A stretch of 40,444 nucleotides of DNA from a virus (lineage: Duplodnaviria > Heunggongvirae > Uroviricota > Caudoviricetes), in the IMG/VR virus record IMGVR_UViG_2579778961_000003; one strand, written 5' to 3'. A program made the position numbers and the translations under genes. The notes under the pieces were generated by a model. It ran no database searches. It saw only the letters and a program-made list of their open reading frames with translations, and was not told the origin of the DNA. This document shows, piece by piece, positions 1-36,602 of this stretch; position 1 is the stretch's first letter; each line of letters opens with the position of its first letter.

Positions 1-1284
1 ATGGAATCCCTAACGTTACAACCCATCGCTCGTGTCGATGGCACTATTAATCTGCCCGGTTCCAAGAGCGTTTCTAACCGCGCTTTATTGCTGGCGGCAT
101 TAGCACACGGCAAAACAGTATTAACCAATCTGCTGGATAGCGATGACGTGCGCCATATGCTGAATGCATTAACAGCGTTAGGGGTAAGCTATACGCTTTC
201 AGCCGATCGTACGCGTTGCGAAATTATCGGTAACGGTGGTCCATTACACGCAGAAAGTGCCCGGGAGTTGTTCCTCGGTAACGCCGGAACGGCAATGCGT
301 CCGCTGGCGGCAGCACTTTGCCTGGGTAGCAATGATATTGTACTGAGCGGTGAACCGCGAATGAAAGAACGCCCGATTGGTCATCTGGTGGATGCGCTGC
401 GCCAGGGCGGGGCGAAGATCACTTACCTGGAACAAGAAAATTATCCGCCATTGCGTTTACAGGGCGGCTTTACTGGCGGCAACGTTGATGTTGATGGCTC
501 CGTTTCCAGCCAGTTCCTCACCGCACTGTTAATGACTGCGCCTCTTGCGCCGGAAGATACGGTGATTCGTATTAAAGGCGATCTGGTTTCTAAACCTTAT
601 ATCGATATCACCCTCAATCTGATGAAGACGTTTGGTGTTGAAATTGAAAATCAGCACTATCAACAATTTGTCGTAAAAGGGGGGCAGTCTTACCAGTCTC
701 CGGGCACTTATTTGGTTGAAGGCGATGCATCTTCGGCTTCTTATTTCCTGGCAGCAGCAGCAATCAGAGGCGGCACTGTAAAAGTGACCGGCATTGGACG
801 CAACAGTATGCAGGGTGATATTCGCTTTGCTGATGTTCTGGAAAAAATGGGCGCGACCATTTGCTGGGGCGATGATTATATTTCCTGCACGCGTGGTGAA
901 CTGAACGCCATTGATATGGATATGAACCATATTCCCGATGCGGCGATGACCATTGCCACCGCGGCGTTATTTGCAAAAGGCACCACCACGCTGCGCAATA
1001 TCTATAACTGGCGTGTTAAAGAGACCGATCGCCTGTTTGCGATGGCAACAGAACTGCGTAAAGTCGGTGCGGAAGTCGAAGAGGGGCATGATTTCATTCG
1101 CATTACGCCACCGGAAAAACTGAAATTTGCTGAGATCGCCACTTATAATGATCACCGGATGGCGATGTGTTTCTCGCTGGTCGCATTATCAGATACGCCT
1201 GTGACGATTCTTGATCCAAAATGTACCGCTAAAACTTTTCCAGACTATTTCGAGCAATTGGCGCGGATAAGTCAACCCGGCTGA
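1..1284 (+). CDS. aroA: 3-phosphoshikimate 1-carboxyvinyltransferase (EPSP synthase), host gene
   Basis: Full-length 427 aa ORF; sequence ([34 protein letters not shown]...) recognised as enterobacterial AroA, very close to E. coli AroA with a few substitutions. Confidence 0.97.
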
Positions 1285-1454: not shown

Positions 1455-1540
1455 TGAAGAATGATGCGCCGCGCGATAAATGCACTCTATCTTGTGCGAT
1501 AAATGGCATCCACGCGGCGTTTCATTATTTGAAAAAGAAT
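1455..1540. other. Mu-type prophage end (attR-like) with repeated putative transposase-binding sites
   Basis: Begins 5'-TGAAG; CGATAAATGC/CGATAAATGG repeated at 1474-1483 and 1497-1506 and GTTTCATT...GAAAAAG at 1518-1537, resembling the Mu right end as I recall it (TGAAGCGGCGCACGAAAAACGCGAAAGCGTTTCACGATAAATGC). Confidence 0.55.
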
Positions 1541-2112
1541 TACATTTCAGGTTGCGTTATGACAGTCCCAACAGGGTGATAGCGGTAGATCGTTGACAGT
1601 CCAATATCATAGATAATTGCCAGCCGCTTTCTGTCATACCCTTTCTGGAGCAATCTTGCGATCTGCTCATGCTGCTCCTTCGTCAGTTTCGGGCGACGTC
1701 CTCCAACTCTTCCTTGTGCTCGCGCAGCAGCCAGTCCAGCCAGCGTGCGCTCAACTATCAGTTCACGCTCCATTTCTGCCAGTGCACCCATCATATGAAA
1801 AAAGAACCTTCCCATCGGAGTGCTGGTATCGATTGAATCCGTCAGACTGCGAAAATTGACACCTTTTGCGCGTAGCTCTTCTGTGAGAGCAATGAGGTGT
1901 TTCATTCTTCTACCCAACCGATCCAGCTTCCAGACCACCAATGTATCCCCTCTTTTAAGGCACTTTAAAGCGCGTTTCAGGCCTGGTCGTTCCGACTTGG
2001 TTCCGCTCATTTTGTCCTCAAAAATCTGTTCACATCCTGCGCACATTAATGCATTGCGTTGCAAATCTGTGTTTTGGTCATTTGTTGACACACGTATGTA
2101 GCCAATCAGCAT
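1540..2112 (-). CDS. gin: Serine recombinase, DNA invertase (Gin/Pin/Cin/Hin family)
   Basis: N-terminus MLIGYIRVSTNDQ (catalytic Ser motif) and C-terminal HTH; start placed at the internal ATG 2112 with AAGGGAG RBS rather than the ORF-track start at 2241. Confidence 0.85.
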   Translation of the reverse strand: MLIGYIRVSTNDQNTDLQRNALMCAGCEQIFEDKMSGTKSERPGLKRALKCLKRGDTLVVWKLDRLGRRMKHLIALTEELRAKGVNFRSLTDSIDTSTPMGRFFFHMMGALAEMERELIVERTLAGLAAARAQGRVGGRRPKLTKEQHEQIARLLQKGYDRKRLAIIYDIGLSTIYRYHPVGTVITQPEM

Positions 2113-2166
2113 TAAAAATACTCCCTTTTGAGTGGTTAAAGTACTGAGATAATGTGGGGAGGATTT

Positions 2167-2192
2167 GAGAGATAAACGTTGGTTTGGGGGAA
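2167..2192. other. Invertase crossover site (gix/hix-like), left
   Basis: 26-bp site GAGAGATAAACG TT GGTTTGGGGGAA with AAAC-NN-GTTT centre typical of hix/gix sites; outer half is identical to the right site in inverted orientation. Confidence 0.55.
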
Positions 2193-2645
2193 GGCTCTGC
2201 ATTGCCTGTTGGTGTACCGGTTCCATGGCCCACCGCCACACCGCCAGCAGGCTGGTTACAGTGCAACGGAGCTACGTTCACCAAAGAACAATATCCTGTT
2301 CTGGTCAGAGTCTACCCGACCCTCCGTCTTCCCGATTTGCGCGGTGAGTTTATCCGTGGATGGGACGGTGGTCGCAAGGTTGATACCGGGCGTGCGCTAC
2401 TTTCATTTCAGGAAGGGACTATCGTATCCGGTTTTGATGATAATGATACCGGAGATATCAGTTCGCTCGGCTCTACACAATACGGATTTGGTGACGCTTT
2501 AACCTCTAATCAACTGGGGGTCTTAAATGGCAAAAAGTGGATATTTGATGCATCCTCTAAAGGTGCACAAAGATATGACTGGTGGGCTTATGTATCAGCT
2601 CGCCCCCGCAATATCGCATTTAACTATATCGTGAGGGCGGCGTGA
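2184..2645 (+). CDS. Alternative tail-fibre C-terminal cassette (Sv'-like), promoterless until inversion
   Basis: First 70 aa nearly identical to residues 278-346 of the fibre at 3266..4603 (GEGSALPVGVPVPWPTATPPAGWL...), then a divergent C-terminus ending NYIVRAA. Confidence 0.7.
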   Translation: MGEGSALPVGVPVPWPTATPPAGWLQCNGATFTKEQYPVLVRVYPTLRLPDLRGEFIRGWDGGRKVDTGRALLSFQEGTIVSGFDDNDTGDISSLGSTQYGFGDALTSNQLGVLNGKKWIFDASSKGAQRYDWWAYVSARPRNIAFNYIVRAA

Positions 2646-2651
2646 TACCGT

Positions 2652-3266
2652 TCAGCCGGCAAGCGCCAGTGGCGCTTCCGGCCAGCTGATTTCAGGTGCC
2701 TTGCTGATATCCAGTGCGTTCAGCTCGTCGATATAATCCAGCACGGCGTTCAGTTTTGCCGTTTCTTCTGGTTTCAGACTGCGACCAGCACGCAGTTTGA
2801 GGTTGATAAGATCGACGGACGCCATCGCCTGTTTCACCCGTTGCTGGCGTTGCTGTCTGGCAACCTCCAGTTCTGCGGCTCGCTGCCGTTCAGTATCGGT
2901 TACCCACGCCTCACCGTTCCAGGTATCCCATGGCGTGGCTGGCTGTTTTGTGGTGGTGTCCGCCGGGTAATCACCCGGTTGGGTAATCAGAACGGGGTTA
3001 CCGTTCTCCGTGCTGTATACCGTCTCGCCGCGGTGATCAGGCACATGCTCCCACCCGTTCAGCGTGGCAGTCCGGCAAACCACGTAACCCGAAATTGCTT
3101 CCGGCGGTGCATCGGCGCACGAATGTGCCGGAGTACCCACCCCAAGGGCGAGATACTCCACAGAGGATGAGGTGTATTCCCGGGTTTCCTCGTCATAGTG
3201 ATATACAGTGATATCGCCCGCTACAGTGGCGATACCGTTTTCATCCAGAACTGCAGTGTTACTCAT
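2652..3266 (-). CDS. Tail fibre assembly protein (chaperone, Mu U / P2 G-like)
   Basis: 204 aa ORF immediately downstream of the fibre gene, inside the invertible segment; position and size typical of tail fibre assembly proteins. Confidence 0.75.
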   Translation of the reverse strand: MSNTAVLDENGIATVAGDITVYHYDEETREYTSSSVEYLALGVGTPAHSCADAPPEAISGYVVCRTATLNGWEHVPDHRGETVYSTENGNPVLITQPGDYPADTTTKQPATPWDTWNGEAWVTDTERQRAAELEVARQQRQQRVKQAMASVDLINLKLRAGRSLKPEETAKLNAVLDYIDELNALDISKAPEISWPEAPLALAG

Positions 3267-4603
3267 TAAACTGCCCTCACAATGTAATTAAGTGCAATGC
3301 TACGGGGTCTGACAGTGATACCCTTCGCATACCCGCTTCTGATAGAGGTCAGAATAGTAGCCTGCATACCATTGTCTGACATTGCCACGACAGGATCGCT
3401 GAATGTTGTCCCGTCCGGCATTTTAAAGCTGCCCTCACGAAGGTCTGTAATGGAATCTTCATTGTTGAATCCCATGCCGACTATCCCCGAGGTTCCCGTA
3501 GTGTCCTGGTTATAATAATCCAGCATTGCTGTTCTTAACAGCGTTGCCCCTTGTGCGGACAGCAACTTACGTCCTGTATCAACTTTGCGCCCGTCGTCCC
3601 ATCCACGGATAAACTCACCGCGTAAATCGGGAAGACGGAGGGTCGGGTAGACTCTGGCCAGAACAGGATATTGTTCTTTTGTAAAGGCGCGCCCGTCGCA
3701 CTTTAACCAGCCTGCTGGCGGTGTGGCAGTGGGCCACGGAACAGGTACACCAACGGGCAGCGCCGAGCCTTCCCCCAAACCAAGGTAATTGAGGACATCT
3801 TTTATACTGCCCTTAGCGATAATAGCGCGACCAATAGCTGTAAGGGTTGCCAGCTCTGCGCGGTCTGCTCCGGTAAAATAAGGCAACCGATCTGCTGCAG
3901 TGGCAAGTCCTGCCAGAGCAGTGAGCGTGGCATCTGCCGGTTGTTTTCCGTTTGCCAGATCGTATGCAGCCTTGACCGCTTTCGGTGTGGCGGCCAGTAT
4001 TTCAGACGTGCTGTTGATGGCACTGCTCAATTGTACGGTGCCTTTTGCCGTCAGCGAGGCAGCAGGCACTCCCGTTATCTGACTCCACGGGTGAGTGTGG
4101 CTGACGGGCGCCTTGCCGGCTGCAAGGTCGTATGCAGCCTTGACCGCCTTCGGCGTGGCAGCCTCAGTTTCTGATTGACTGTCCGTGGCGCTGCTCAGTT
4201 GTACGGTGCCTTTTGCCGTCAGTGAAGCCGCAGGCACTCCCGTTATCTGACTCCACGGGTGAGTGTGGCTGGCAGGCGCCTTGCCGGCTGCCAGGTCGTA
4301 TGCAGCCTTGACCGCTTTTGGTGTGGCGGCCAGCGTTTCAGAGGTGCTGTTGGTGGCACTGCTCAGTTGGGTGAACCCCTTAGCTGTCAGTGTCGCGTCC
4401 GGGTGGTTACGGGAACGTACGTGTTCAGCCAGTGACTGTGCGGCTTCCTCCGTTTTCTTCTTCAGCCATTTCGTCCTGTTTGCCAGTTGCCGGGGGGCTC
4501 GATTTGATATCCCGTCTGCACCACCCAGAACCGGATCTGATGTCTCCAGTTGATAGATATTTTCTTCCCACTTTTCTGTTTCATTCAGGTTTCCCATAAT
4601 CAA
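3266..4603 (-). CDS. Tail fibre protein (Mu S / P2 H-like) with variable C-terminus
   Basis: 445 aa; internal 56-aa repeats with the ...SETLAATPKAVKAAYDL... motif known from Mu/P1/P2 fibres; C-terminus ends NYIVRAV. Confidence 0.85.
   Translation of the reverse strand: MIMGNLNETEKWEENIYQLETSDPVLGGADGISNRAPRQLANRTKWLKKKTEEAAQSLAEHVRSRNHPDATLTAKGFTQLSSATNSTSETLAATPKAVKAAYDLAAGKAPASHTHPWSQITGVPAASLTAKGTVQLSSATDSQSETEAATPKAVKAAYDLAAGKAPVSHTHPWSQITGVPAASLTAKGTVQLSSAINSTSEILAATPKAVKAAYDLANGKQPADATLTALAGLATAADRLPYFTGADRAELATLTAIGRAIIAKGSIKDVLNYLGLGEGSALPVGVPVPWPTATPPAGWLKCDGRAFTKEQYPVLARVYPTLRLPDLRGEFIRGWDDGRKVDTGRKLLSAQGATLLRTAMLDYYNQDTTGTSGIVGMGFNNEDSITDLREGSFKMPDGTTFSDPVVAMSDNGMQATILTSIRSGYAKGITVRPRSIALNYIVRAV
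3770..3795. other. Invertase crossover site (gix/hix-like), right
   Basis: TTCCCCCAAACC AA GGTAATTGAGGA, about 19/26 matches to hix as recalled; inverted relative to the site at 2167-2192. Confidence 0.55.
3944..4393 (-). repeat. In-frame 168-bp tandem repeats (about 2.7 copies) inside the tail fibre gene
   Basis: Protein repeat SLTAKGTVQLSSA...TPKAVKAAYDLAAGKAP.SHTHPWSQITGVPAA at residues 71-126 and 127-182, partial third copy 183-220. Confidence 0.8.
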
Positions 4604-5178
4604 CTGCTCCCGTGGTTATAACTGCCATCATGGATGGCGGTATTGTTATAGCGAATGGCCACAGACTGATACTCCAGGCTGGCCAGATGGCAGCGGGCCG
4701 GTGCAAATGCAGCCAGCGTCTGACGCAGCATCGCGGCCTGATCGTTAGTAATGGGCTGTTTCAGAATAACGCGATAAACTGCCCAGGCGGCTGCATCTCC
4801 ATGAACAAACAGTCCGTTATAGCTGCGATTGCCGTCGTAACTGAGACGACCTGTGCCTTCAATCAGATCCACTTCACCAAAGCCAAAACGGCGGATAACT
4901 TCCCGGATTGACCACGGCGTCCCTTTATACCGGTGCAGTTCGATGGCTGCTTTTATAAGCATGCGGCGAACATCGTCCGATTCCGCCAGCTCCCAGCCAT
5001 CGCCAGACAGTGAGAACTGCTCGCCCAGCCATGGCAGCGCGGAACTGTCGACGATATCGACGAGAAAGACCATCAGTACGCTCAGGTCGATGTTATCCAG
5101 CCGTCCTGCCAGTCTTCCCAGCGTCCTGAGACTGATATCACCCTCAAGCGGTGGCGGGAGTTGTAATGGCTCAGTCAT
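4600..5178 (-). CDS. Baseplate/tail protein (P2 gpI-like)
   Basis: 192 aa; position between J-like gene and fibre gene as in P2-type baseplate modules. Confidence 0.65.
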   Translation of the reverse strand: MTEPLQLPPPLEGDISLRTLGRLAGRLDNIDLSVLMVFLVDIVDSSALPWLGEQFSLSGDGWELAESDDVRRMLIKAAIELHRYKGTPWSIREVIRRFGFGEVDLIEGTGRLSYDGNRSYNGLFVHGDAAAWAVYRVILKQPITNDQAAMLRQTLAAFAPARCHLASLEYQSVAIRYNNTAIHDGSYNHGSS

Positions 5179-6274
5179 CAGACACTCCAGTCATGTTAAG
5201 AGTGATTGCCGTACAGTTTGCCCATTCGTTTTCTGCCACCACCCGCAGTGCCGGTGTCACCAGTTCAACCTGGTACACCCCGGAAACGGACAATGCACTG
5301 ATAATCTGGCTGGGGACAATATCGCGCCCCAGCGTGGCGGCACGTGATGCCACCCAGTTCTGTATGGCGCTGTTAGCGGCATCTTTTACAGACCTGGCAT
5401 CCTGATCACGATAGATCGTAATCCTGGCTTCAATGGTGTAATCCACCTTCACTGGTGTTTTAGCCCGCACTGTATCAGTGAGTGGCCTGACTTTCTCATC
5501 AGAGCAGAAACTCTCTACCAGCGTGAGAACACCGCCGTCCGGCAGACCGGTACTGAGCAGCGGATACAGATCTACGGTCCCGGGAACCGGGGAAAGCACA
5601 GCAACATCGACAATGTTGGGATGGGCCTGCATGGCATGAAAGCGGTATGCGCCACGGCTTCCGGCATTGGTGAATGACTCCGGGGCCAGCCTGATACGCT
5701 CCCGGAGCCTGTCATCGTCTTCCTGTTCTGAACCGCCGGAACTGGCCATCAGATTGCTCACCAGCAGGTTAACGTTATCAATCTCATCGAGTAACTGACT
5801 GACCTGCGCAGGTTGCCAGCCGTTACCAGCGGTACCGGGTTCGGTACAGGTGGCCGTGACATTGACCAGCAGCAATCCGGCCTTCAGTACCACATCTGTA
5901 TCGGTGGCAAAAATAACGCTGTCGGAAGCGCTGACGCGGGTGCCTGCCGGGATCAGCACATCAATGGCCAGTGCCTCATCTACGGAGAACTGGAGCGTGG
6001 TGGTGGCAGGCTGCGCGGCAAGACGGTATACACCGACCAGTTCACCGAGGTAATCAATCATCGGCTCACGGGCAAAGGCGACCAGATTCTGCTTTGCTGC
6101 CTCCTGTACCGCAACCCTGACCAGCATTTCGCGATAGGCCCACAGATCAATCAGCAGACGTTCTGCCTGTGCCGGGTACAGCGTTTTGCCGGTATCCGCT
6201 TCATACTTCGCAATCATTTCTGCCGTGATTTTGTCGGCATCGCGTTCAATAAAATCGGGTTCTGTCAGCGCCAT
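5171..6274 (-). CDS. Baseplate protein J-like
   Basis: 367 aa; order W-J-I-fibre matches the P2-type baseplate module. Confidence 0.75.
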   Translation of the reverse strand: MALTEPDFIERDADKITAEMIAKYEADTGKTLYPAQAERLLIDLWAYREMLVRVAVQEAAKQNLVAFAREPMIDYLGELVGVYRLAAQPATTTLQFSVDEALAIDVLIPAGTRVSASDSVIFATDTDVVLKAGLLLVNVTATCTEPGTAGNGWQPAQVSQLLDEIDNVNLLVSNLMASSGGSEQEDDDRLRERIRLAPESFTNAGSRGAYRFHAMQAHPNIVDVAVLSPVPGTVDLYPLLSTGLPDGGVLTLVESFCSDEKVRPLTDTVRAKTPVKVDYTIEARITIYRDQDARSVKDAANSAIQNWVASRAATLGRDIVPSQIISALSVSGVYQVELVTPALRVVAENEWANCTAITLNMTGVSDD

Positions 6275-8414: not shown

Positions 8415-8617
8415 GGGGCAATATCCTCTTCTGTACGGGCTTCTTCAGCCTCAATCACCGGGATCAGTAACAACAGCCCGGAGGGCAGCACCGGCGTGAT
8501 GGCCACGTGCGGATTGGCGGCAATAATCCGGGGATAGCCCAGCGGGTCACCGTAGTACTGCCATGCCAGCGAATCCCAGCGCTCTCCGTCACGGGTAACA
8601 TGTTCAAGAAACATCAC
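8402..8617 (-). CDS. Tail protein X-like
   Basis: 71 aa ORF between U-like and D-like genes, size and position of P2 gpX. Confidence 0.55.
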   Translation of the reverse strand: MMFLEHVTRDGERWDSLAWQYYGDPLGYPRIIAANPHVAITPVLPSGLLLLIPVIEAEEARTEEDIAPWLR

Positions 8618-9498
8618 ACACTCCTCGTCAGTATTCTGGCGGCCATTGCACTTAATCCCGGAGACATGCGGTTGAATGCTGTGCCGACGGCGTTAAGCTG
8701 CCCGGAAACGGTATCCAGAGCACCTGCAATATTTCTTTTGTCCACACCACTCAGCGCAGACTGTGCCTGCTGTACATACGTGGCTGCTTCGCTGGCTGTT
8801 CTGGCCAGACTGATGGCATCGGGCATGGATTCAGAGAGTGCGTTAAACGCCGGAACACTTTTCCCCAGAGCCCCGGAGATATTACCCAGTCCGCTCATCA
8901 GCCCCGGCACACGGGTCAGTGCGACAACGGGGTTATCCTTCATTTTCTGTGTCACCCGAACGGCGCTGATAGTGGTCTGGAGTACAGACTGCGCCTGTTT
9001 CGCATAGTTGACGCCGTTGCGGATGAACTGCGCCACCCCTGAAGGTGAAGGTATGGCACCGGAGACCGCCCCGACACCCGGGAGCTTCGTGCGTATTGCC
9101 GGTGGTTGCAGAGGATTTTTCGGGTCACCGGTGTATTCCCGGAGAGACACGGTGGCACTGACAGCCAGCACGTTGCCGGTACTGTCAGTCTGCTCGCTGG
9201 TTGCAGTCACATCGGTGATCACGAACCAGCCGCGATAGTCACCGTTGCCGAAGACCAGCGCCAGTGCCTGATGGGCTTTCATGGCTGTTCGCAGTCTCGC
9301 CAGCTCCACATCGGGTACACAATAATGCTGATGGAAAACCAGAGTTATCTGGATTTCGTCCAGCCTGTCGCCGACGAACTGCAGACCAGGCTTACCCCCG
9401 ATGCGGGCATGCTCCGCATAATCGACGCCGAACGTGGCCTCGAAGCCGTCCCAGTAGGTAATCAGCTCAAACTCAATATCACCCAGTACGGCAAACAT
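8614..9498 (-). CDS. Tail protein U-like with C-terminal extension
   Basis: N-terminus MFAVLGDIEFEL...GGKPGLQFVGDRLDEIQITL follows the P2 gpU pattern as recalled; immediately downstream of the tape measure gene. Confidence 0.6.
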   Translation of the reverse strand: MFAVLGDIEFELITYWDGFEATFGVDYAEHARIGGKPGLQFVGDRLDEIQITLVFHQHYCVPDVELARLRTAMKAHQALALVFGNGDYRGWFVITDVTATSEQTDSTGNVLAVSATVSLREYTGDPKNPLQPPAIRTKLPGVGAVSGAIPSPSGVAQFIRNGVNYAKQAQSVLQTTISAVRVTQKMKDNPVVALTRVPGLMSGLGNISGALGKSVPAFNALSESMPDAISLARTASEAATYVQQAQSALSGVDKRNIAGALDTVSGQLNAVGTAFNRMSPGLSAMAARILTRSV

Positions 9499-12449
9499 CA
9501 GCGGTACTCCTTACGTTGTTTCTGAGCCAGCAGACGCTCCAGCATTTTTTCCAGCTCATGCAGACTCATATTCAGGGCACCAGTCAGTCCTGCAGGCGCT
9601 GTGGTTTCCCTGCCATTGAGGAAAAACTGAGGATTAAAGCTGACCTGGATACCACCAGACGTTCCACCGCCGGTTGCAGCTGCACCACGGCCTGAATATC
9701 CGGCAGCCAGGATTTCAGGCGAGGGGATACGGGGAACATCCGGTGTCATCTCATTTGCCAGACGTTGCCCTGGTAAAATCGATGCCCGGGTGGAGAGCGG
9801 AATAGCGGGCATGGAAGACAAACTATTGATTACGGCTCCGATCGCATTTTTAGCAGACGACATAAACCCATTGATATCGGGCAACGGCATACTGAAGCGA
9901 ACACCTGAAGTGTTATCCCGTATTTCTGGCCCCTGAATGCTCACGGGCATTCTGGGGAGCAGTTCACTGGCCATTCGCTGCCCGGCCAGAGCTGCAAGCG
10001 GAGTGGTCCGCTGCAGGCCAATGGCGGCCCCCTGCGCGATATTGTCACCAAAGCCCATAAACACGCGGCTCGGCGAATGAATGCCCAGCTTTTCGCTGAA
10101 CCAGCCACTGATGCTGTCGCCCATTCCGGTTACACTGGATTTGAGCGACTCCCATTTGTTTTTGATACCGTTAATCAGACCATCGACAAGATGGCCACCG
10201 AAGTCGGTAAACTTTGCCGGCAGATCAACACCAAGATATTTCAGCGCAGCTGCAAAGGCTTTATAGAGCAGACCTGCCGGCGACCAGTTAATCAGCAGCT
10301 TACCAGTTCCCGCGATACCGCCGTTAAAGGCTTCCTGAATGTCAGCCCAGCATTGTTTAAACCAGCTACTGATGCTGTCACCCATTCCGGTTACACTGGA
10401 TTTGAGCGACCCCCATTTGTTTTTGATACCGTTAATCAAACCGTCGATAAGATGGCCACCGAAGTCGGTGAACTTTGCCGGCAGAGTAACGCCGAAATAT
10501 TTCAGCGCAGCCGCAAAGGCTTTATAGAGCAGGCCTGCCGGCGACCAGTTAATCAGCAGCTTACCAGTTCCCGCGATACCGCCGTTAAAGGCTTCCTGAA
10601 TGTCAGCCCAGCGCTGTTTAAACCAGCCACTGACTGCCCCCCAGTTGCGGTAGATAAGGTAAGCTGCTGCCGCGACAGCGGTGATAACGAGACCGATGGG
10701 ATTCATCATCAGCGCTCGCCCAATCCAGAGAACGGCACGTGCAGCGCTCATAAAACCGCGAACGAGGCTGCCCGCCAGAACTTTGCTGAGTTTCAGTCCT
10801 CCGCTGGTCAGTCGGCTGAATCCAGTGACAAGCCAGCGTAATTTGCCACCTTCTCCGAGTGCGGTAGTCAGTCGATGCCAGTTGGTCCGGAGTAAAACAG
10901 CAGTTTTCCAGACGTTCACAAAGGGGGAAATAAGGAGATTCAGCCCCAGTTTGAGACCAACAGTCGCTATCTTAATCGCAAGGAGCGCACTGATGAGCTT
11001 AAAAGCCCCACTGACAAATTGCGGGTGAGTCGCCACCCAGTGTTTTGTCCCCTGAATGAGTGGGAGCAAGTCCTGAGTCAGAGAAATAAAAGATGGAGCT
11101 AATTGATCGCCCAGCGTAATTGCCAGATCGCGACTGCTGACCATAAGTGTTTTAGTGGCTTCAAGGGGAGATTTCAGCCGCTGATCATAAGCACTGGCAA
11201 GCAAATCGTTATCCGCAGCCCTGAGAGCACCGGCACGGATCTCTCGATATCTGTCCATGTTGGCCAGCATCGGGCGGATAAATGCCATGACCTGCATATC
11301 CGCGAACATATCGCCCAGACCAAAGTTTTTCGCCAGAGCCTGAAGTGCCTCATCTCTTGCCGTATCATTCTTTATTTTCATGGCTGATTTGAAGCCGGCC
11401 AGCGCTTCGGGGCTTTTGGCATTGAGGTAACGTTCTATAACACTCAACATCCCTTCAATCGGAGAGATCCCCGCAGCTTTATAACTCGCAATAGATCCCT
11501 GCAAATCAATACCCAGATCAGCAAACTGTTTCTGAGTATCGCGGGCAAAAATTTTGGTAAGAAAGTTTTTAAAATTATTGGCTGCTTCGTCGGTGGAACC
11601 TGCACCGATTTTTGCTATCTGGAGACTGGCCCCGATTTCAGCAACAGCCTCTTTTCCACTGGCAATACCCGCCATCATTGGGGCCAGGGACTGCATCCAC
11701 TTGACCTGATCCGGGATTTCAAATGACCCCTGGTCACCGGCATAAGCCATAATATTCTGAACGGCACCAAAATCTCTGGCCGCGCCTTTCAGGGAGTTTT
11801 GCCAGACTGCGGCCACTTTTGCCCAGTCCTGAGCAGACGTGCGTGTTGCCGTTGCCGCGCGGGCAATATCCGGCATCAGAAAACCGATATCTGACACATT
11901 ATCAATATTGTCGCTGATGAGTGAACCCATCGCCTCCTGCAGCTCATCCTGATACTGATTGTATTTAAGCGCCCAGCCTTTTATCTGTCCGGCAAGTGCA
12001 TCCCGCGTTTTATTGTCATATTTTGCGGTGATCGACATATCAATCATTTTGTCCTGAAAAGACATGGACTGCTGAACGGCAGGGGAAACCGTATGATAAA
12101 CAGTCTGTGCCATGCCATACGCTTCAATCCCCTGACCATACAGCGCCATGCGGTTAGCTTTCAGCGCATCACTGGTAGCGGATGCCGCTGACAGACGGCG
12201 CTGCTGGCGCTCAATTTGCTCCATGGTGCGGCTTACCCGCAGCAGCTCGCTGTTGAGATGCTGCATCCGGGAAGAACCCAGTTGACCATAACGTTCTGTT
12301 GCACGGGTTAAAGCGTTCTGACGTTCCTGCAGGCGGCGTGAGGTATCGCTCAGGGAATCAAGCGCACGGCGGGTACCGCTCATTGCAGAACGGAATGTGC
12401 TGCCAATCATCCCGCCGATAACAACGCCGACTGAAAACTGTCCCGACAT
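9498..12449 (-). CDS. Tail tape measure protein
   Basis: 983 aa, coiled-coil N-terminal region, hydrophobic central region, located after the frameshifted tail chaperone. Confidence 0.9.
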   Translation of the reverse strand: MSGQFSVGVVIGGMIGSTFRSAMSGTRRALDSLSDTSRRLQERQNALTRATERYGQLGSSRMQHLNSELLRVSRTMEQIERQQRRLSAASATSDALKANRMALYGQGIEAYGMAQTVYHTVSPAVQQSMSFQDKMIDMSITAKYDNKTRDALAGQIKGWALKYNQYQDELQEAMGSLISDNIDNVSDIGFLMPDIARAATATRTSAQDWAKVAAVWQNSLKGAARDFGAVQNIMAYAGDQGSFEIPDQVKWMQSLAPMMAGIASGKEAVAEIGASLQIAKIGAGSTDEAANNFKNFLTKIFARDTQKQFADLGIDLQGSIASYKAAGISPIEGMLSVIERYLNAKSPEALAGFKSAMKIKNDTARDEALQALAKNFGLGDMFADMQVMAFIRPMLANMDRYREIRAGALRAADNDLLASAYDQRLKSPLEATKTLMVSSRDLAITLGDQLAPSFISLTQDLLPLIQGTKHWVATHPQFVSGAFKLISALLAIKIATVGLKLGLNLLISPFVNVWKTAVLLRTNWHRLTTALGEGGKLRWLVTGFSRLTSGGLKLSKVLAGSLVRGFMSAARAVLWIGRALMMNPIGLVITAVAAAAYLIYRNWGAVSGWFKQRWADIQEAFNGGIAGTGKLLINWSPAGLLYKAFAAALKYFGVTLPAKFTDFGGHLIDGLINGIKNKWGSLKSSVTGMGDSISSWFKQCWADIQEAFNGGIAGTGKLLINWSPAGLLYKAFAAALKYLGVDLPAKFTDFGGHLVDGLINGIKNKWESLKSSVTGMGDSISGWFSEKLGIHSPSRVFMGFGDNIAQGAAIGLQRTTPLAALAGQRMASELLPRMPVSIQGPEIRDNTSGVRFSMPLPDINGFMSSAKNAIGAVINSLSSMPAIPLSTRASILPGQRLANEMTPDVPRIPSPEILAAGYSGRGAAATGGGTSGGIQVSFNPQFFLNGRETTAPAGLTGALNMSLHELEKMLERLLAQKQRKEYR
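10075..10640 (-). repeat. 261-bp in-frame tandem duplication (2 copies plus the start of a third) inside the tape measure gene
   Basis: ccagc(c/t)actgatgctgtc recurs at 10101, 10362 and 10623 (period 261 bp); the protein shows two 87-aa units WFKQ(R/C)WADIQEAFNGGIAGTGKLLINWSPAGLLYKAF... Confidence 0.9.
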
Positions 12450-12524: not shown

Positions 12525-12942
12525 CTATGATTTGTCGCCGTACTCGCTTTTGATTTGCTCTTCAGCCTGCTCCAGCCACATCTCCAGATCGTCAGTATCG
12601 AGGGCATCAATCTCCCCCGGCTGAAACCGGAACCATCTCGCCAGCAGCCCCTGCGCCTGCGTCAGCGCCCTGGTTGCTCTCACCCATCCCCGTGATGAGC
12701 TGAAATCGTTTCTGTAACTGCAGGTAATCAGCCAGATCCATATTGTCGAGATCCTCCGGGAGAAGACCAGTACTGCGGGCAATCAGCGGTTCGTCCCAGT
12801 CTGCCGGGTTTTTGCTGATTTTGCGCACCTGCTTCAGGTCTTTTACCGTCAGGCGTTTCAGTTCAACCAGCTCAATTCTGGTGCCTGCAGCAGTGGTGAA
12901 GGGATAAGACAATTTAAAAGTATCGGATGGGGTCTGTGACAT
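12525..12942 (-). CDS. Tail assembly chaperone, predicted frameshift-extended product (E+E'-like)
   Basis: Overlapping ORF 12525..12782 in the +1 frame fills the otherwise 157-nt gap before the tape measure gene; a G5 run (plus-strand C5 at 12614-12618) lies just before the zero-frame stop. Confidence 0.5.
12607..12942 (-). CDS. Tail assembly chaperone (P2 gpE-like), zero-frame product
   Basis: 111 aa ORF with AGGAG RBS between tail tube and tape measure genes. Confidence 0.7.
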   Translation of the reverse strand: MSQTPSDTFKLSYPFTTAAGTRIELVELKRLTVKDLKQVRKISKNPADWDEPLIARSTGLLPEDLDNMDLADYLQLQKRFQLITGMGESNQGADAGAGAAGEMVPVSAGGD

Positions 12943-13323: not shown

Positions 13324-13845
13324 TCAGCCCCCGATATTGATACGGTAGTCAGTCAGTTGATCAACACCGCCGACCCGGAAGATGTTGGCCAGATAGTCCA
13401 GTTGCAGCAGCTCTTCACCATCCAGTACCTGTCTGATATACGTGCAGGTGAAGCTACTGGAGAACTCGGCGTTCTCGTGCTGTTTGAACGTCCCCAGCGG
13501 GTTCTTCTTGAACATAATCGTCAGGAAGGTGACCAGCGGGATTTCGTCAATCAGCCCCTGCGAGCTGTAGCGCTGGACGCTGGAACGACACTGCAGTGCC
13601 AGCGACCTGTACGGGTTCGCGGCAGACAGCATCGCATCGCGGTAAAAGCTGTTCCATTTGATTTCGCCTTCCAGTTTGTCAAAACCAGCCGGGAGTTCCA
13701 CCTTACCCACCATCCCCAGCGCCTTGTGTTCCTGCATAATCATGGAGACATCGGGGAGTTTAACTTCCTCAGCCCGTCCCAGCAGGTTAGTACCATCCAG
13801 ATAGATGTTGGCATTCGTGATGCGGTTTATCTCAATCTTTGACAT
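13324..13845 (-). CDS. Tail tube protein (P2 FII-like)
   Basis: 173 aa ORF directly after the sheath gene. Confidence 0.8.
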   Translation of the reverse strand: MSKIEINRITNANIYLDGTNLLGRAEEVKLPDVSMIMQEHKALGMVGKVELPAGFDKLEGEIKWNSFYRDAMLSAANPYRSLALQCRSSVQRYSSQGLIDEIPLVTFLTIMFKKNPLGTFKQHENAEFSSSFTCTYIRQVLDGEELLQLDYLANIFRVGGVDQLTDYRINIGG

Positions 13846-15272
13846 CAGTTGCCCCCTTTCAGGGTTAACAGGTATTCCGAGGTGATCTCAGTCTCAAACG
13901 TCAGTCGCTCCAGCGGCGGTGGTGGCGTATATTTGTAGCTCAGCAACAGGTGCCCGGCGGCCAGCTCCGTCTCCGGATTGCGGGCCGGATCAAACCAGCA
14001 ACGGAAGCCCAGTACCGCACCATCACCAGTCATTTTGCGACCGTAGGCGTTGACCGACTCCGTCAGTGCATCAATCAGCGCCTGAGTAATCGGCATGTCG
14101 ATGTACTGCTGGCTGAAATAACGAATGGACTCGTTGATCACATCACCGGTGCGGCGAACGTTCTCAAAGTTACGCATATGGGTGACCGTTGGCCATGCTG
14201 CCGTCCGGTTACCCCACAGACGAAGGCCGCTGCCGTAACTGCTGAATACCGTGGTGATCCCCTGTTCGTTAAGCAGGTTCACCTCACTCTGCGGGTCATC
14301 AATCATCGCGGACAGCTGGCGCTCCACGCCGGTGATCCCCAGAATCTCCTGATTGGAGGATGACCACCAGTAGCCCTTGTCCAGATCGACTCTGGCACGC
14401 AGACCTGCTGCACGCTGGCTGAGCGGCTCCAGACGCTCTGTGTTTGTCACCGGGTCATATACCTTCACATGCGGATAGCACAGACGGACGCGGTCGGAGC
14501 TGGTATTGAAGTTGATGGTGCCTTCCGGGCCACGACCTGCCAGAGCCTGTGCAAAGGTGGTACCGACAGGCGCATCAATGTAGGTTACCGCGCCCAGCTT
14601 CTCTGCCATGGCGATAAGCTCAACTGCGACACTCTTCTGGGTGCAGAACACCGGCGCAATCAGAATTTTGGCGAAATAGCCGTACAGGTTGAAGCTGTCG
14701 TTAAGCAGCTTCATGCCGGTTCGGTTTCCGGCGCTGTTCACCCCGCCGATGATGTCCGCCGCAGTCACCTTCGACGGGTCCGCGTACTCATAGCTCACCT
14801 TCACGCTGCCACCGGCCTCAATAGCCTTGCCCAGGTTCGTGAGCACACCCGCCTGCGCATCAACACGGTAGTCCGTGTTCGCCGTGTGGGTGGTGCTGCC
14901 TTCACTGTTTTTCACCACCACATTAGCGACAACCGGATGCGCCAGTCTGGCCTGCCCTGTCGATTTGTCAAAGGTAACCACCTCATCCTCGATCGCCGTT
15001 TTATGTTTCGCCGGGTCGAGGACGTTAATGACCAGAACGGTGCCTGCACCATGGTCATAAATCGCATCCAGCGCCTGCGGAATGGTAAAGCCGGTGAACT
15101 GGCTGCCAAATGCCGCTGCGTCTTTCTCAGACAGGCACTGTACCAGCGTATTGACATCCCCCATCGGGGCGGTACCAATCAGGCCAATAACGGCAGATTT
15201 CACCGTTTTAACCGGGCGGGCACCGTTTTCCACCTCAATGGTTTCGGGACCATGCAGATAGTTAGCTGCCAT
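13845..15272 (-). CDS. Tail sheath protein
   Basis: 475 aa; size and position typical of contractile tail sheath (Mu L / P2 FI family). Confidence 0.9.
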   Translation of the reverse strand: MAANYLHGPETIEVENGARPVKTVKSAVIGLIGTAPMGDVNTLVQCLSEKDAAAFGSQFTGFTIPQALDAIYDHGAGTVLVINVLDPAKHKTAIEDEVVTFDKSTGQARLAHPVVANVVVKNSEGSTTHTANTDYRVDAQAGVLTNLGKAIEAGGSVKVSYEYADPSKVTAADIIGGVNSAGNRTGMKLLNDSFNLYGYFAKILIAPVFCTQKSVAVELIAMAEKLGAVTYIDAPVGTTFAQALAGRGPEGTINFNTSSDRVRLCYPHVKVYDPVTNTERLEPLSQRAAGLRARVDLDKGYWWSSSNQEILGITGVERQLSAMIDDPQSEVNLLNEQGITTVFSSYGSGLRLWGNRTAAWPTVTHMRNFENVRRTGDVINESIRYFSQQYIDMPITQALIDALTESVNAYGRKMTGDGAVLGFRCWFDPARNPETELAAGHLLLSYKYTPPPPLERLTFETEITSEYLLTLKGGN

Positions 15273-17740: not shown

Positions 17741-18614
17741 TTACAGGCAGCGTGCGACAGCAGCCTCATAGCTGATGCCTTCTTTTTTGGACAGGGCCAC
17801 TGCTTTCTGATGCAGGGCCAGACGCTCAGGATCGGCTTCCGCAAACTCTGCCACATCCACCTTCACCGTGTCGCCGACACGCTCTTTTGTGGCCTGTTCG
17901 GCGAAATTCATCACCGGCTCCCCGTCGGAGAGCAATGAACGAAAGGCGGTGGCCAGCGGTGTGCGGCTTTCCCCCTCAGCAAACTCCACCGGCTTGTCGC
18001 CACCGGCGACGGCATCCAGCAGGGCAACCACCACGGAGGAGGCGCGGGGAGCCAGACGGCCCTCTGCGACCAGTTTTTCTGCAAAGGCCACATTGTCCTT
18101 ATGCAGTTGCTCCTGTCTGACCTGTGCATCACGCGCATCGCGATCAGCAGCCTGCTGCTTCAGGCGGCGGTTCTCCTCCTGAAGGGCTTCAATCTCTTCT
18201 TTTGTCATCGATGATTCCTCGTTACTTGCGGAAGACGGCCCCGGGCCTGTCTCACTGAATTGTGCACCTGCTGCATCCTGCGACAGTGTGTCGCGGTACG
18301 CCTCTTCGCGCAGACTGTTGAGCTGCCATTCCGGCAGGACTTTTTCTGCCTCGTCCAGACTGAAGCGGGCGATCAGAAAATCGCGCAGCTTTCCCCACAG
18401 GGAGGCATTCGTGATGGCCTGCCAGTCGGCGAACTCCACCACACCTTCTTCCTGCTCACTGAAGGACACCTGTTTCAGCCCCTTGACGGAAGGTGGCTGT
18501 GCCCCGAGAAAGCCCACATGGCGAAGGTAGAGCACGCCGGGCTTCGGATTGGACGGTGAATCCGGGAGGTAGAAAGAGGCGGACACTTTTTTGAATCGTC
18601 CGTCGGTGACCATC
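17741..18614 (-). pseudogene. Head protease/scaffold gene I, C-terminal fragment (split by IS66 element)
   Basis: Frame continues across the IS: flank reads ...EMV | TDGRFKKVSASFYLPDSP... once the IS and one TSD copy are removed; Ala/Glu-rich scaffold-like C-terminus. Confidence 0.8.
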
Positions 18615-18644
18615 GTAAGCGTCAACGGAGCACCGTATTGACGC

Positions 18645-20258
18645 TTATTTATTGGTGAGTACTACGTTCCATGGCAGGAGTTCGTCAACTCGGTTGGAAG
18701 GCCATTCCGGCAGTACGCTCAGGATATGGCGCAGATACGCTTCCGGATCGATACCGTTCAGACGGCAGGTGCCGATCAGCCCGTACAACAGTGCTCCACG
18801 CTCGCCGCCGTGATCGCTGCCAAAGAACATAAAGTTTTTCTTTCCGAGACAGACTGCACGAAGCGCTCTTTCCGCAGCATTATTATCCGCCTCCGCCAGA
18901 CCGTCATCACTGTAATAACAGAGGGCATCCCACTGATTCAGTACATAGCTGAACGCTTCGCCCAGTCTGGATTTTTTCGACAGCGTACCATTCTTCTCCA
19001 CCATCCATTCATGCAGCGACGTCAGTAACACTTTGCTTCGCTGCTGCCTGACGGCAAGACGCTCTGACTCCGGTAATCCCCGTATTTCATCCTCGATGGC
19101 GTACAGTTCACTGATTCGCTTCAGGGCTTCTTCTGCCGTCGCACTTTTGCTGCTGATGTATACATCGTGGATTTTTCGCCGGGCATGGGCCCAGCACGCA
19201 ACTTCTGTCAGTGCACCACCTTCACGTTCTGCACTGAACAACCTGTCGTAACCTGTGAACGCATCCGCCTGCAGGATACCCCGGAAGGGGCGGAGGTGTT
19301 GCTCCGGGTGTTTCCCCTGCCGGTTCGGCGAGTACGCGAACCAGACCGCTGGAGGAGATGACGAACCCACATTGCGATCATCCCGGACATACGTCCAGAT
19401 ACGCCCTGTTTTCGCCTTTTTCTGACCCGGTGCCAGTACCTTTACCGGTGTGTCATCAGTGTGAACCTTGCGGGTGTTCATTACATAACGGTACAGGGCA
19501 TCATTCACCGGTGTCATTAACTGGCAGCACGCGTCAACCCAGTTGGAGAGTAAGGCCCGGCTCAGTTCGACACCCTGGCGGGCAAAGATTTCACTCTGAC
19601 GATACAGTGGCAGATGTTCGCAGTATTTTCCCGTTAACACGCGGGCAAGTAATCCGGGGCCCGCGATACCACGCTCTATCGGGCGGGACGGCGCCGGTGC
19701 TTCAACAATACAGTCACATTTTGTACAGGCTTTTTTTACCCGTTCTGTGCGGATCACTTTCAGGGCACTGCTCACCAGTTCCAGCTGTTCAGCGCTGACT
19801 TCCCCCAGATAATCCAGCTCACCGCCACACTCCGGGCAACAGCTTTCTTCTGGCTCCAGGCGGTGTATTTCACGGGGAAGGTGTGCCGGTAACGGACGAC
19901 GATGGCGCGACTGTCGCAACTGGCGGGGAACCTGAGGATCGTCTTCCCGCCCACTGTAACGATCGCTGTCCTGTTCACGTTGTTTCAGCAGAGCCTCAGC
20001 CAGTTCAACTTCACGACGCAGTTTTTCAGAACGGGTACCGAACAGCATCCGGCGCAGTTTTTCTATCTGAGCCCGCAGATGTTCTATTTCCCGTTCATCT
20101 TCTTCGATCTTTTCTTCGGCACGTGTCAGTGCAGAGCGCAGGAAGGCTTCCGTCTCTTCAACCAGACTCAGTTGCTGGTCTTTCTGACGGAGGGCTTCAG
20201 CCTGCTCAGAGAGCAACCTTTCCAGCTCTGCGATGCGAATGAGGTATTTCTGACTCAT
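18645..20258 (-). CDS. IS66-family transposase (TnpC)
   Basis: 537 aa with N-terminal coiled-coil/leucine zipper (LRAQIEKLRRMLFGTRSEK), zinc-finger cysteines and DDE region, as recognised for IS66 transposases. Confidence 0.9.
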   Translation of the reverse strand: MSQKYLIRIAELERLLSEQAEALRQKDQQLSLVEETEAFLRSALTRAEEKIEEDEREIEHLRAQIEKLRRMLFGTRSEKLRREVELAEALLKQREQDSDRYSGREDDPQVPRQLRQSRHRRPLPAHLPREIHRLEPEESCCPECGGELDYLGEVSAEQLELVSSALKVIRTERVKKACTKCDCIVEAPAPSRPIERGIAGPGLLARVLTGKYCEHLPLYRQSEIFARQGVELSRALLSNWVDACCQLMTPVNDALYRYVMNTRKVHTDDTPVKVLAPGQKKAKTGRIWTYVRDDRNVGSSSPPAVWFAYSPNRQGKHPEQHLRPFRGILQADAFTGYDRLFSAEREGGALTEVACWAHARRKIHDVYISSKSATAEEALKRISELYAIEDEIRGLPESERLAVRQQRSKVLLTSLHEWMVEKNGTLSKKSRLGEAFSYVLNQWDALCYYSDDGLAEADNNAAERALRAVCLGKKNFMFFGSDHGGERGALLYGLIGTCRLNGIDPEAYLRHILSVLPEWPSNRVDELLPWNVVLTNK

Positions 20259-20288
20259 GACCGTTTTTATAATGCGGTCAGGAGTTTT

Positions 20289-20639
20289 TTACAACATTGT
20301 CAGTGAGTTACGGCTGGATGTTTTTGGCTGACGCCAGTCCAGCTTATCGAGGAGCATTGCCAGTTGCGAGCGGGTAATGGATACCTTGCCGTCACGTACC
20401 GCAGGCCAGATAAACTGGCCTTCCTCCAGGCGTTTGGTGAACAGGCACAGACCATCAGCATCAGCCCAAAGAATTTTGACGGTGTCACCCCGTCGGCCAC
20501 GGAAGATAAACAGGTGACCGGAGAAGGGATTATCATTCAGCACATGTTGTACCTGTTCTCCCAGTCCGTTGAAGGATTTACGCATATCGGTAACGCCGGC
20601 AACGAGCCAGATACGGGTACCTGATGGGAGTGAGATCAT
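20289..20639 (-). CDS. IS66 Orf2 (TnpB) accessory protein
   Basis: 116 aa ORF in IS66 position 2; overlaps TnpA stop. Confidence 0.85.
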   Translation of the reverse strand: MISLPSGTRIWLVAGVTDMRKSFNGLGEQVQHVLNDNPFSGHLFIFRGRRGDTVKILWADADGLCLFTKRLEEGQFIWPAVRDGKVSITRSQLAMLLDKLDWRQPKTSSRNSLTML

Positions 20640-21061
20640 CTTCCCCTCCCGGTCAGTTCACGGATCAACACTGTGAGCAGCTCTGGCGATGGATTTTCCA
20701 GCGTCATGTTACCGTGACGGAATTCCACCTTGCAGGAACTGGCACTGACTCTGGTCTGAGTGGAAGTGGATAAAGACGGCGCAATGGCCGCCACAGGTTC
20801 TTTCTGCTCATCCGGCGTTATTTCTACAGGTAATAATTCAACGCCAGTGTCAGAAGAGGTCGTTACCGGAAGACGCCGCGAAACACGCCCTTCGTTCTGC
20901 CAGAGCCTGAGCCATTTGAAAATAACATTATCATTGACGCCATTTTCACGTGCAATCTGTGCAACACAAGCTCCAGGTTGTGATGCCAGTTCCACCATAC
21001 GAAGTTTGAATTCATTCGAATAGTTTTTACGAGGTTCTTTTCGCCAGTCCTGTAATTCCAT
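20636..21061 (-). CDS. IS66 Orf1 (TnpA) accessory protein
   Basis: 141 aa ORF with HTH-like N-terminus, first gene of the IS66 operon. Confidence 0.8.
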   Translation of the reverse strand: MELQDWRKEPRKNYSNEFKLRMVELASQPGACVAQIARENGVNDNVIFKWLRLWQNEGRVSRRLPVTTSSDTGVELLPVEITPDEQKEPVAAIAPSLSTSTQTRVSASSCKVEFRHGNMTLENPSPELLTVLIRELTGRGR

Positions 21062-21146
21062 ACTTAGATGTCCGTCTATATCAGATGGGCGTCTAAGTTA
21101 CCAATTCTCGTCTGATGGCTACATACGGCGGTCAGTTTACGCTTAC

Positions 21147-21396
21147 TGACCATCTCAGCAAACTGCGGGTCCAGCTGGGCAGGCTCTGCCATCAGATCGA
21201 CGCCGCTGAGCGACAGGGCTTTCACCCAGCCCCACGCCGGGTCTTCCGTTCTGGGATGACCAATCACGAGTGGTGCTTCATGGACGGACGGGTCATAGGC
21301 TTTCACGCAGGCGGCAAGATCGTCTGGCGTGAACGGCAGTTTTTTGCCGTGCATATCGGTATGAGTACCGGCTTTAAAAATGTGAATGGCTGACAT
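21147..21396 (-). pseudogene. Head protease/scaffold gene I, N-terminal fragment (split by IS66 element)
   Basis: N-terminal 83 codons (MSAIHIFKAGTHTDMHGKKL...) then read-through into the IS terminal repeat. Confidence 0.8.
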
Positions 21397-35425: not shown

Positions 35426-35435
35426 GGAGGGAAAC

Positions 35436-36602
35436 ATGCTGGTACTGAAGCAGCAACTGAAAGAGGCCCGTATTCCACAGGCGGTGGTGGCGAGAGCTGT
35501 CGATGTTTCTGAGGCCACGCTGGCCCAGATTGTGAATCATAACGCGTGGCCCCGCACCAGCCCCGGAGAAGTGCGCCGGCGTCTTGCGTCCTGGCTGGAA
35601 AGTCAGGGGATTGATACAACGAAGAGTTTTGATGCTGTACAGGGCGCGGCCACGCCCCGTACAGCGGGTACCACAGATAAAACGAGCCTCAGTGAGGAAG
35701 AGAATATGTTACTCAAAAAACAGGTGTTATTTCCAGCAACCAAAAAAGCGTTTGGTCTTTTCCGTGACCCGTTCGCCGACGAAGCCATGCAGGGTTCTGA
35801 TGATGTGTTCACCACCCCGGACATTCGCTACGTGCGTGAGGCGCTGTACCAGACAGCCCGTCATGGTGGGTTTATGGCCGTCATCGGTGAGTCCGGTGCG
35901 GGTAAATCCACGCTGCGCCGCGACCTGACTGAACGTATCAACCGCGAGAATGCGCCGGTAATTGTTATCGAGCCATACATCATCGCTATGGAAGACAACG
36001 ATGTGAAAGGGAAAACCCTGAAGGCAGCAGCTATTGCCGAAGCCATTATCAGTACCATCGCACCACTGGAAAGCATCAGACGCAGTCAGGACGCCCGTTT
36101 TCGCCAGTTGCATCGCGTCCTGAAAGACAGCAGCCAGGCGGGGTTCAGCCACGTTCTGGTGATTGAGGAGGCCCACAGTCTGCCCATTCCGACACTGAAA
36201 CACCTCAAACGCTTTTTTGAGCTGGAGTCCGGTTTCAAAAAACTGCTGTCCATCGTGCTGATTGGCCAGCCGGAACTGGCGACAAAACTGTCTGAACGCA
36301 ATATGGAAGTCCGTGAAGTCGTTCAGCGCTGTGAGGTGGTCGAACTTCTGCCTCTGGACAATAACCTTGAAGAATTTCTGACGTTCAAACTGCAACGGGC
36401 CGGTAAACAGCTGACGGACATTATGGACGCCGGTGCAGTGGATGCCATACGTGCCCGCCTGAGCAATCCGGGAAGTCACCGTAAAAATATGGTCAGCCTG
36501 CTGTATCCGCTGGCCGTCAGTAACCTGGTAATAGCCGCCATGAATCTGGCCGCTGAAATCGGGGTTCCACAGGTCAACGCTGACGTTGTCAAAGGGGTTT
36601 AA
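35436..36602 (+). CDS. Transposition ATPase (Mu B-like, AAA+)
   Basis: Walker A GESGAGKST, N-terminal HTH-like region; start placed at ATG 35436 with GGAGGG RBS. Confidence 0.75.
   Translation: MLVLKQQLKEARIPQAVVARAVDVSEATLAQIVNHNAWPRTSPGEVRRRLASWLESQGIDTTKSFDAVQGAATPRTAGTTDKTSLSEEENMLLKKQVLFPATKKAFGLFRDPFADEAMQGSDDVFTTPDIRYVREALYQTARHGGFMAVIGESGAGKSTLRRDLTERINRENAPVIVIEPYIIAMEDNDVKGKTLKAAAIAEAIISTIAPLESIRRSQDARFRQLHRVLKDSSQAGFSHVLVIEEAHSLPIPTLKHLKRFFELESGFKKLLSIVLIGQPELATKLSERNMEVREVVQRCEVVELLPLDNNLEEFLTFKLQRAGKQLTDIMDAGAVDAIRARLSNPGSHRKNMVSLLYPLAVSNLVIAAMNLAAEIGVPQVNADVVKGV

Follow-up and report, generated by a model that had tools for sequence, protein, structure and literature searches.

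An in-frame 87-residue tandem repeat and a one- to four-unit allelic series in the tail tape measure gene of a BcepMu-like prophage of Escherichia coli

The DNA analysed here (IMG/VR record IMGVR_UViG_2579778961_000003; 40,444 nt, hereafter the window) carries a BcepMu-like transposable myovirus prophage of E. coli, whose tail tape measure gene contains a tandem repeat. Tandem Repeats Finder (TRF) reported a single array at window positions 10099-10633, with a period of 261, 2.05 copies, 93% matches, no indels and a score of 958, and an exact-seed repeat search placed two copies head to tail at 10099-10359 and 10360-10620 with 94% identity. As a control, other adjacent 261-nt blocks of the same gene were compared; they share 27% identity on average and 31% at most, so the array is far beyond what chance would give. 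The period of 261 nt equals 87 codons, and the array therefore stays in frame in the minus-strand open reading frame (ORF) that holds it. The 87-residue tandem repeat in the tape measure protein is genuine, and the original prediction, which was made from the letters of the window, was right in describing an in-frame tandem duplication of 261 bp.

We denote the two copies unit A, the first in gene order, and unit B, the last (Table 1). A-type units carry R3, F42, T45, I58, G70 and S85, and B-type units C3, L42, D45, V58, E70 and G85. The array spans 62-80% of the protein length, directly after two hydrophobic segments, and not the middle of the ORF as had been proposed. The start of a third unit, described in the same prediction, amounts to only the 13 nt TCAGTGGCTGGTT upstream of unit A. 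This stretch codes for SGWF and is identical to the end of unit B, not to the start of a unit, and it accounts for the TRF array reaching 10633; it is best described as flanking microhomology. The same short direct repeat is found on both sides of the single unit in a one-copy allele (L002), and in a degenerate form in two more distant ones (L005 and L006). At its low end the repeat had been drawn 24 nt too far (10075-10098), and the sequence past that end of the array is unrelated to the repeat.

Table 1. Features of the tape measure locus and of the surrounding prophage, in window coordinates.
Feature	Position	Strand	Basis or details
Tail tape measure protein gene, 983 aa	9498..12449	-	ORF list and translation; PF10145
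Repeat unit A, first in gene order	10359..10619	-	aa 611-697; 261 nt, codon phase
Repeat unit B, last in gene order	10098..10358	-	aa 698-784; 261 nt, codon phase
Junction, unit A end / unit B start			GACAGCATCAGTAGCTGGTTTAAACAATGCTGGGC
13-nt microhomology, directly upstream of unit A	10621..10633	-	TCAGTGGCTGGTT; codes SGWF
Hydrophobic segment 1	10926..11021	-	aa 477-508; Kyte-Doolittle
Hydrophobic segment 2, directly upstream of repeat	10650..10736	-	aa 572-600; Kyte-Doolittle
Mosaic patch, 261 nt, directly upstream of repeat	~10621-10881		aa ~524-610
71-aa segment, second length polymorphism	~9732-9944		aa ~836-906
gpU-type tail protein, downstream neighbour	8614..9498	-	PF06995, 132.5 bits
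Tail assembly chaperone (gpE-type), upstream neighbour	12607..12942	-	PF10109 Phage_TAC_7, 74.8 bits
Tail tube protein (FII-type)	13324..13845	-	PF04985, 180.5 bits
Contractile tail sheath protein	13845..15272	-	PF04984 and PF17482
aroA (EPSP synthase)	1-1284		directly flanks the prophage
Invertase gene, Gin-like	1540-2241	-	Resolvase/HTH_7
Invertible tail-fibre segment	~2179-3786
IS66-family insertion, 2532 bp	18615-21146		24-nt terminal inverted repeats
Head-module gene (371 aa), split by IS66	17741-18625 and 21076-21396
rve-domain gene (DDE transposase)	33656-35425		Pfam
AAA_22 gene (MuB-like AAA+ ATPase)	35397-36602		Pfam

The assignment of the gene to a tape measure protein, also part of the original prediction, was supported by a match to Pfam family PhageMin_Tail (PF10145) at aa 159-340, with 74.6 bits against a cut-off of 33.2, and by the order of the tail-module genes, which is as in tape measure loci: sheath, tube, gpE-type chaperone and tape measure, followed by gpU, gpX and gpD. 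PF10145 is present in all listed homologues, and RefSeq names the copies that are 100% identical 'phage tail tape measure protein'. Pfam matched the protein only with PhageMin_Tail, which lies upstream of the repeat, and a PDB sequence search with the whole protein gave no match at E<=0.01. In an AlphaFold single-sequence model, aa 560-830 come out mostly as helix, although at a predicted local distance difference test (pLDDT) score of 41 the model is unreliable and gives only a weak hint of helicity. The hydrophobic segments were called where the Kyte-Doolittle value in a 19-residue window exceeded 1.5.

The two-unit allele is widespread. The whole tape measure gene is matched at 99% identity or more in 371 complete E. 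coli genomes, and the 1044-nt region that includes both units and their flanks in 364, many of them at 100%; these genomes come from many countries and hosts, and the exact 983-aa protein is found on at least 1000 contigs. Because it recurs at this identity in more than 360 complete genomes, the two-copy state is, as judged from these matches, a stable and widely inherited allele, neither an assembly artefact nor a transient. The comparison with close relatives that the original prediction had proposed brought out one, two, three and four units. Intact ORFs in complete genomes encode 896 aa with one unit (L002, L007, L008 and L009) and 1070 aa with three (L003, L004 and L010), on either side of the 983 aa and two units of the window gene, and a further intact ORF encodes 1157 aa with four (P0282). 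The more distant L005 and L006, which are separate lineages at 85-90% identity, encode 821 aa with one unit and are also without a separate 71-aa segment. Among the 120 best protein matches, one unit was counted in 28, two in about 66 and three in about 22. Sixty of the 634 complete genomes with a match, taken at even spacing, gave 43 with two units, 12 with a three-unit pattern (3 of them verified by ORF length), four with one unit and one with a partial match. With a single-unit DNA query, counts at a coverage of at least 80% are confounded by joined pieces of two-copy genomes, and identity bands and individual rows were used instead. A second related prophage, considered for the two match places seen in most genomes, was rejected, as these are explained by off-diagonal matches of one unit to the other.

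Two of the three-unit genes, in L003 (703-3915) and L004 (685-3897), are intact 1070-aa ORFs without an internal stop that the RefSeq pipeline calls pseudogenes ('incomplete; partial in the middle of a contig'), while the gene of the same length in L010 is a normal coding sequence. It seems that the extra unit misled the annotation and that the label is an artefact.

The composition of the units shows how the alleles are related. The first unit is A-type and the last B-type in nearly all of the one-, two-, three- and four-copy alleles examined, and this order is common to alleles whose upstream flanks are about 20% apart. At site 7 (a T, in the Cys3 codon) the middle units of three-copy alleles are of type B, and from site 87 on they are of type A (pattern ABAAAA...); such units, in which a B-type 5' marker is joined to an A-type 3' part, are the exact product predicted for a misaligned exchange between two A-B alleles. 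The commonest one-copy allele, P0103 (L007-L009), has no differences from the window gene over 1830 nt upstream and 600 nt downstream, and in its single unit sites 6-7 are of type A and those from site 87 onward of type B (pattern AABBBB...; L007/L009). The longest identical run between A and B is 79 nt (sites 8-86), and the P0103 pattern is the product of one crossover anywhere in this stretch. The single unit of L002 follows the first unit of L003 as far as site 87, and its sites from 108 onward are B-type (pattern AAABBB...); an L003-type start followed by a B-type end marks it, from its site pattern, as a contraction product. The array thus has the features of a coding minisatellite, that is, near-identical genes, all in frame, which differ by whole units, and hybrid units that switch type at the positions an exchange would predict. 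A literature search for copy-number variation of prophage tape measure genes by unequal exchange found no relevant earlier description.

The two units are less alike than the 'nearly identical' of the original prediction implies. In codon phase 17 of the 261 sites differ, and 16 in the TRF phase (93.5-94% identity), with nine synonymous and six non-synonymous codon differences (R3C, F42L, T45D, I58V, G70E and S85G). The Nei-Gojobori estimates are 0.036 for non-synonymous (dN) and 0.189 for synonymous divergence (dS), which gives an omega of 0.19, and both copies are evidently under purifying selection and used, as far as substitution patterns tell. When the outgroup single units of L005 and L006 were used to polarise the 17 sites, the derived state was assigned to A at seven and to B at nine, with one site ambiguous. 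A and B are each 30-35 sites from these outgroup units, which makes the duplication younger than that split. With a dS of 0.19 and private derived changes in each copy, the duplication looks decidedly old and far from fresh.

The original prediction had it the other way round, with a recent and possibly unstable duplication; on this reading the second copy would be a very young acquisition of the lineage, and would probably disappear again or differ in number within a culture. Copy number does vary among very close relatives, one of the one-copy alleles has the same flanks as the window gene, at 100% identity, and the record of the closest phage, Escherichia phage PhiKM (PQ738613, Bcepmuvirus), which is 99.3% identical across the entire tape measure gene, has a gap exactly in the repeat. 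A recent origin is nevertheless very unlikely, given the divergence and derived changes of both copies, the presence of the two-copy allele at 99% identity or more in over 360 complete genomes, and an A-first, B-last order common to alleles that differ by about 20% in the upstream flank. The instability that had been suspected is borne out at the scale of the population, as an allelic series with recombinant units, and only there.

Alternatively, the differences in copy number could come from collapse or over-expansion by assemblers, with the true state equal everywhere. This concern bears most on P0103, which is the exact de Bruijn path through the 79 nt common to A and B, so that a short-read assembler would produce it too, by passing the shared 79-mer and skipping one unit; the allele is matched at 99% or more in only 3 of 5426 complete genomes, yet on 435 contigs of a draft-rich collection. 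In addition, PhiKM could not be assembled across the repeat: its record (L001, PQ738613.1) has a sequencing gap of 100 N inside it (4915-5239), and the gene is annotated in two pieces. Some of the one-copy P0103 contigs are probably collapsed assemblies, and part of the one-copy signal may be artefact. As an explanation of the whole series, assembly error is very unlikely. Collapse cannot create extra, distinct units, and the first units of three-copy alleles carry private substitutions; such alleles are present in about 12 of the 60 sampled complete genomes. Furthermore, the L002 unit switches type within a shared stretch of 20 nt, too short for k-mer collapse, and the one-copy L005 and L006 are separate lineages. 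The three- and four-unit alleles, the L002 hybrid and the distant one-unit lineages are independent of the caveat on P0103.

Two further observations concern the same gene. Immediately upstream of the repeat, 261 nt make up a mosaic patch, in which alleles that are 1-2 nt apart downstream of the array differ by 53-54 nt (about 20%); the contrast between the two sides places a recombination boundary at the repeat edge. Downstream of the array lies a second length polymorphism, the 71-aa segment GQRMASELLPRMP...SILP that is missing from the 821-aa proteins of L005 and L006. A GQR[ML]A..E motif bounds this segment on both sides, which suggests that it is another, older partial duplication.

The prophage itself has the expected modules of a BcepMu-like transposable myovirus. 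The genes for the rve-domain transposase and the MuB-like ATPase were found by Pfam, Portal_Mu, Phage_Mu_F, Mu_Gp36 and Gp37 were found in the near-identical prophage L007, and the contractile tail and baseplate are of P2 type (sheath, tube, gpU, X and D). The element lies directly next to aroA, with the same junction in L007, L008 and L011, while the near-identical prophage of L009 is at a different chromosomal site, as expected of a transposable phage. The tape measure gene is 100% identical in many genomes of sequence type 131 (ST131), including EC958 and JJ1887. For prophage Phi2 of EC958 an invertible tail-fibre segment has been published (PMC4134206), and in EC958 the tape measure gene is about 7.6 kb from that segment. 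The window has the same layout, and by this match the element is identified as Phi2 or a very close relative. The Phi2 paper describes the invertible segment, and the term 'tape measure' is absent from its text (PMC4134206). The window segment corresponding to the published one (PMC4134206) adjoins the Gin-like invertase gene, with tail-fibre and fibre-assembly genes alongside, and is inverted in L007 and L008 relative to the window.

An IS66-family element is inserted in the head module of the window prophage. It carries three ORFs (HTH_Tnp_1, TnpB_IS66 and DDE_Tnp_IS66), has an 8-bp overlap at the join that suggests target duplication, and is missing from the otherwise 100% identical prophages L007, L008 and L011. 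Because it splits a head-module gene of 371 aa, the prophage copy in the window is probably defective.

Taken together, the observations suggest the following course. The first duplication would have arisen by slippage or illegitimate recombination between 13-nt direct repeats, TCAGTGGCTGGTT, bracketing a single unit, and this repeat probably seeded it. The two copies would then have diverged under purifying selection, while misaligned homologous recombination between units gained or lost whole 261-nt units, as in a coding minisatellite, and so gave rise to the intact alleles of one, two, three and four units (896, 983, 1070 and 1157 aa).

Homologues of the module are found well outside E. coli. 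Among 1.84 billion representative proteins, the 87-residue unit gave 661 matches at E<=0.001, 328 of them at E<=1e-10, with one to five matched stretches per protein among the 661. A phmmer re-scan of the 150 best counted, in full-length proteins (at least 700 aa), one match in 63, two in 25, three in nine and four in one. Since distant tape measure proteins hold one to four matches at varied spacings (42-43, 76, 87 and 113-114 aa), this part of P2/BcepMu-type tape measures has been expanded repeatedly. Hundreds of such distant proteins, among them those of Pseudomonas, Ralstonia and Burkholderia phages, retain the module at 36-58% identity. A setting of unit length by the spacing of tail rings was considered and dropped, as the periods are not multiples of the residues of one tube ring.

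What the series would mean for the virion follows from the function of the protein as a ruler, along which, in its extended form, the tail tube and sheath are taken to polymerise. Helical rulers span about 0.15 nm per residue, in agreement with the data for TP901-1. For a unit of 87 aa this predicts a change in tail length of about 13 nm, or some three tube rings, and by the ruler principle tails with one to four units should measure about 134, 147, 160 and 174 nm. In lambda, T4 and TP901-1 the length of the tail is known to follow that of the tape measure protein, also where duplications were engineered into it (PMC3271669, PMC5099701, PMC13585406); the wild-type tail of TP901-1 is 118 nm long, and those of deletion mutants are proportionally shorter (PMC5099701).

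We consider it highly probable that this combination, an old in-frame repeat that is reshuffled by unequal exchange into a series of ruler lengths, explains the locus. Several points weigh against it. The divergence of A and B may alternatively stem from recombination between two diverged alleles and not from age in place; with IS66 in the head gene, the tape measure gene may never build a virion from this copy; helicity and 0.15 nm per residue are assumptions, the structural model being unreliable; and the repeat adjoins hydrophobic segments, so that a role other than that of a spacer is possible. Such a role could be that of a functional domain, for example in chaperone binding, membrane insertion or channel formation at infection, whose function extra copies would alter while tail length stayed unchanged. 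The conservation of the module across hundreds of distant proteins, its omega of 0.19 and its position directly after the two hydrophobic segments fit a domain. We regard this as improbable, as deletions in the repeat and the hydrophobic regions of TP901-1 both shortened the tail in proportion (PMC5099701), and as the Pfam and PDB searches and the nearly all-helical, if weak, model suggest no folded enzymatic domain.

Beyond a ruler of varying length, the array might act as a contingency-type locus, in which switching between one and four units tunes the tail to the thickness of the host envelope or capsule. The 87-residue step, roughly three tube rings, would then have been kept, and the 79-nt identity retained to favour exchange. 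Intact alleles, purifying selection and the fact that remote tape measure proteins have expanded the module too are compatible with this idea, to which we give a small chance.

The value of the locus lies in a natural ruler series of one to four units, in prophages that are almost identical and belong to an E. coli clone of clinical importance (ST131). With this series the ruler rule could be put to the test in a Mu-like phage with a contractile tail, for which direct evidence of the rule is scarce. There is also a practical side, as the repeat breaks or collapses assemblies and leads the NCBI pipeline to call intact three-copy genes pseudogenes. Apart from this, the variation is of an expected kind.

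Finally, we compared the array with known systems, among which it stands as a new and well documented example of a known phenomenon, the variation of phage ruler length. Like the E. coli lineage, Burkholderia phages phiE255, phiE12-2, phi52237 and KS14, Ralstonia phage RSY1 and BcepMu have a P2-type tail module and a homologue of the repeat module (36-55% identity), but these phage records have one match each, that of BcepMu being to the second half of the unit only; near-exact tandem multiplication is, by this comparison, specific to the E. coli prophage lineage. Tandem repeats in tape measure proteins have been proposed as a natural means of changing tail length (PMC3271669, Belcaid, Bergeron & Poisson 2011; PMC5099701, Mahony et al. 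2016). The repeats of those studies and of TP901-1 are likewise in frame in the ruler protein and vary in copy number by duplication and loss, but they have units of 11 or 18 residues, with Trp or Phe at fixed spacing, and belong to siphoviruses, whereas here a unit of 87 residues is present in one to four copies in a contractile tail of P2/BcepMu type. An aromatic periodicity of 11 or 18 residues was not found in or around the array, where the W/F spacings are 4, 7, 14, 10, 7, 8, 3, 16, 17 and 1. Engineered changes of the ruler are described for lambda gpH (Katsura & Hendrix 1984; Katsura 1987), T4 gp29 (Abuladze et al. 1994) and the tape measure protein of TP901-1 (Pedersen et al. 2000), as cited in PMC3271669, PMC5099701 and PMC13585406. 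As in those constructs, the length of the ruler is changed in frame and a proportional change of the tail is expected; whereas they were made in the laboratory and their tails measured, the prophages described here provide a natural allelic series, known from the genes alone.

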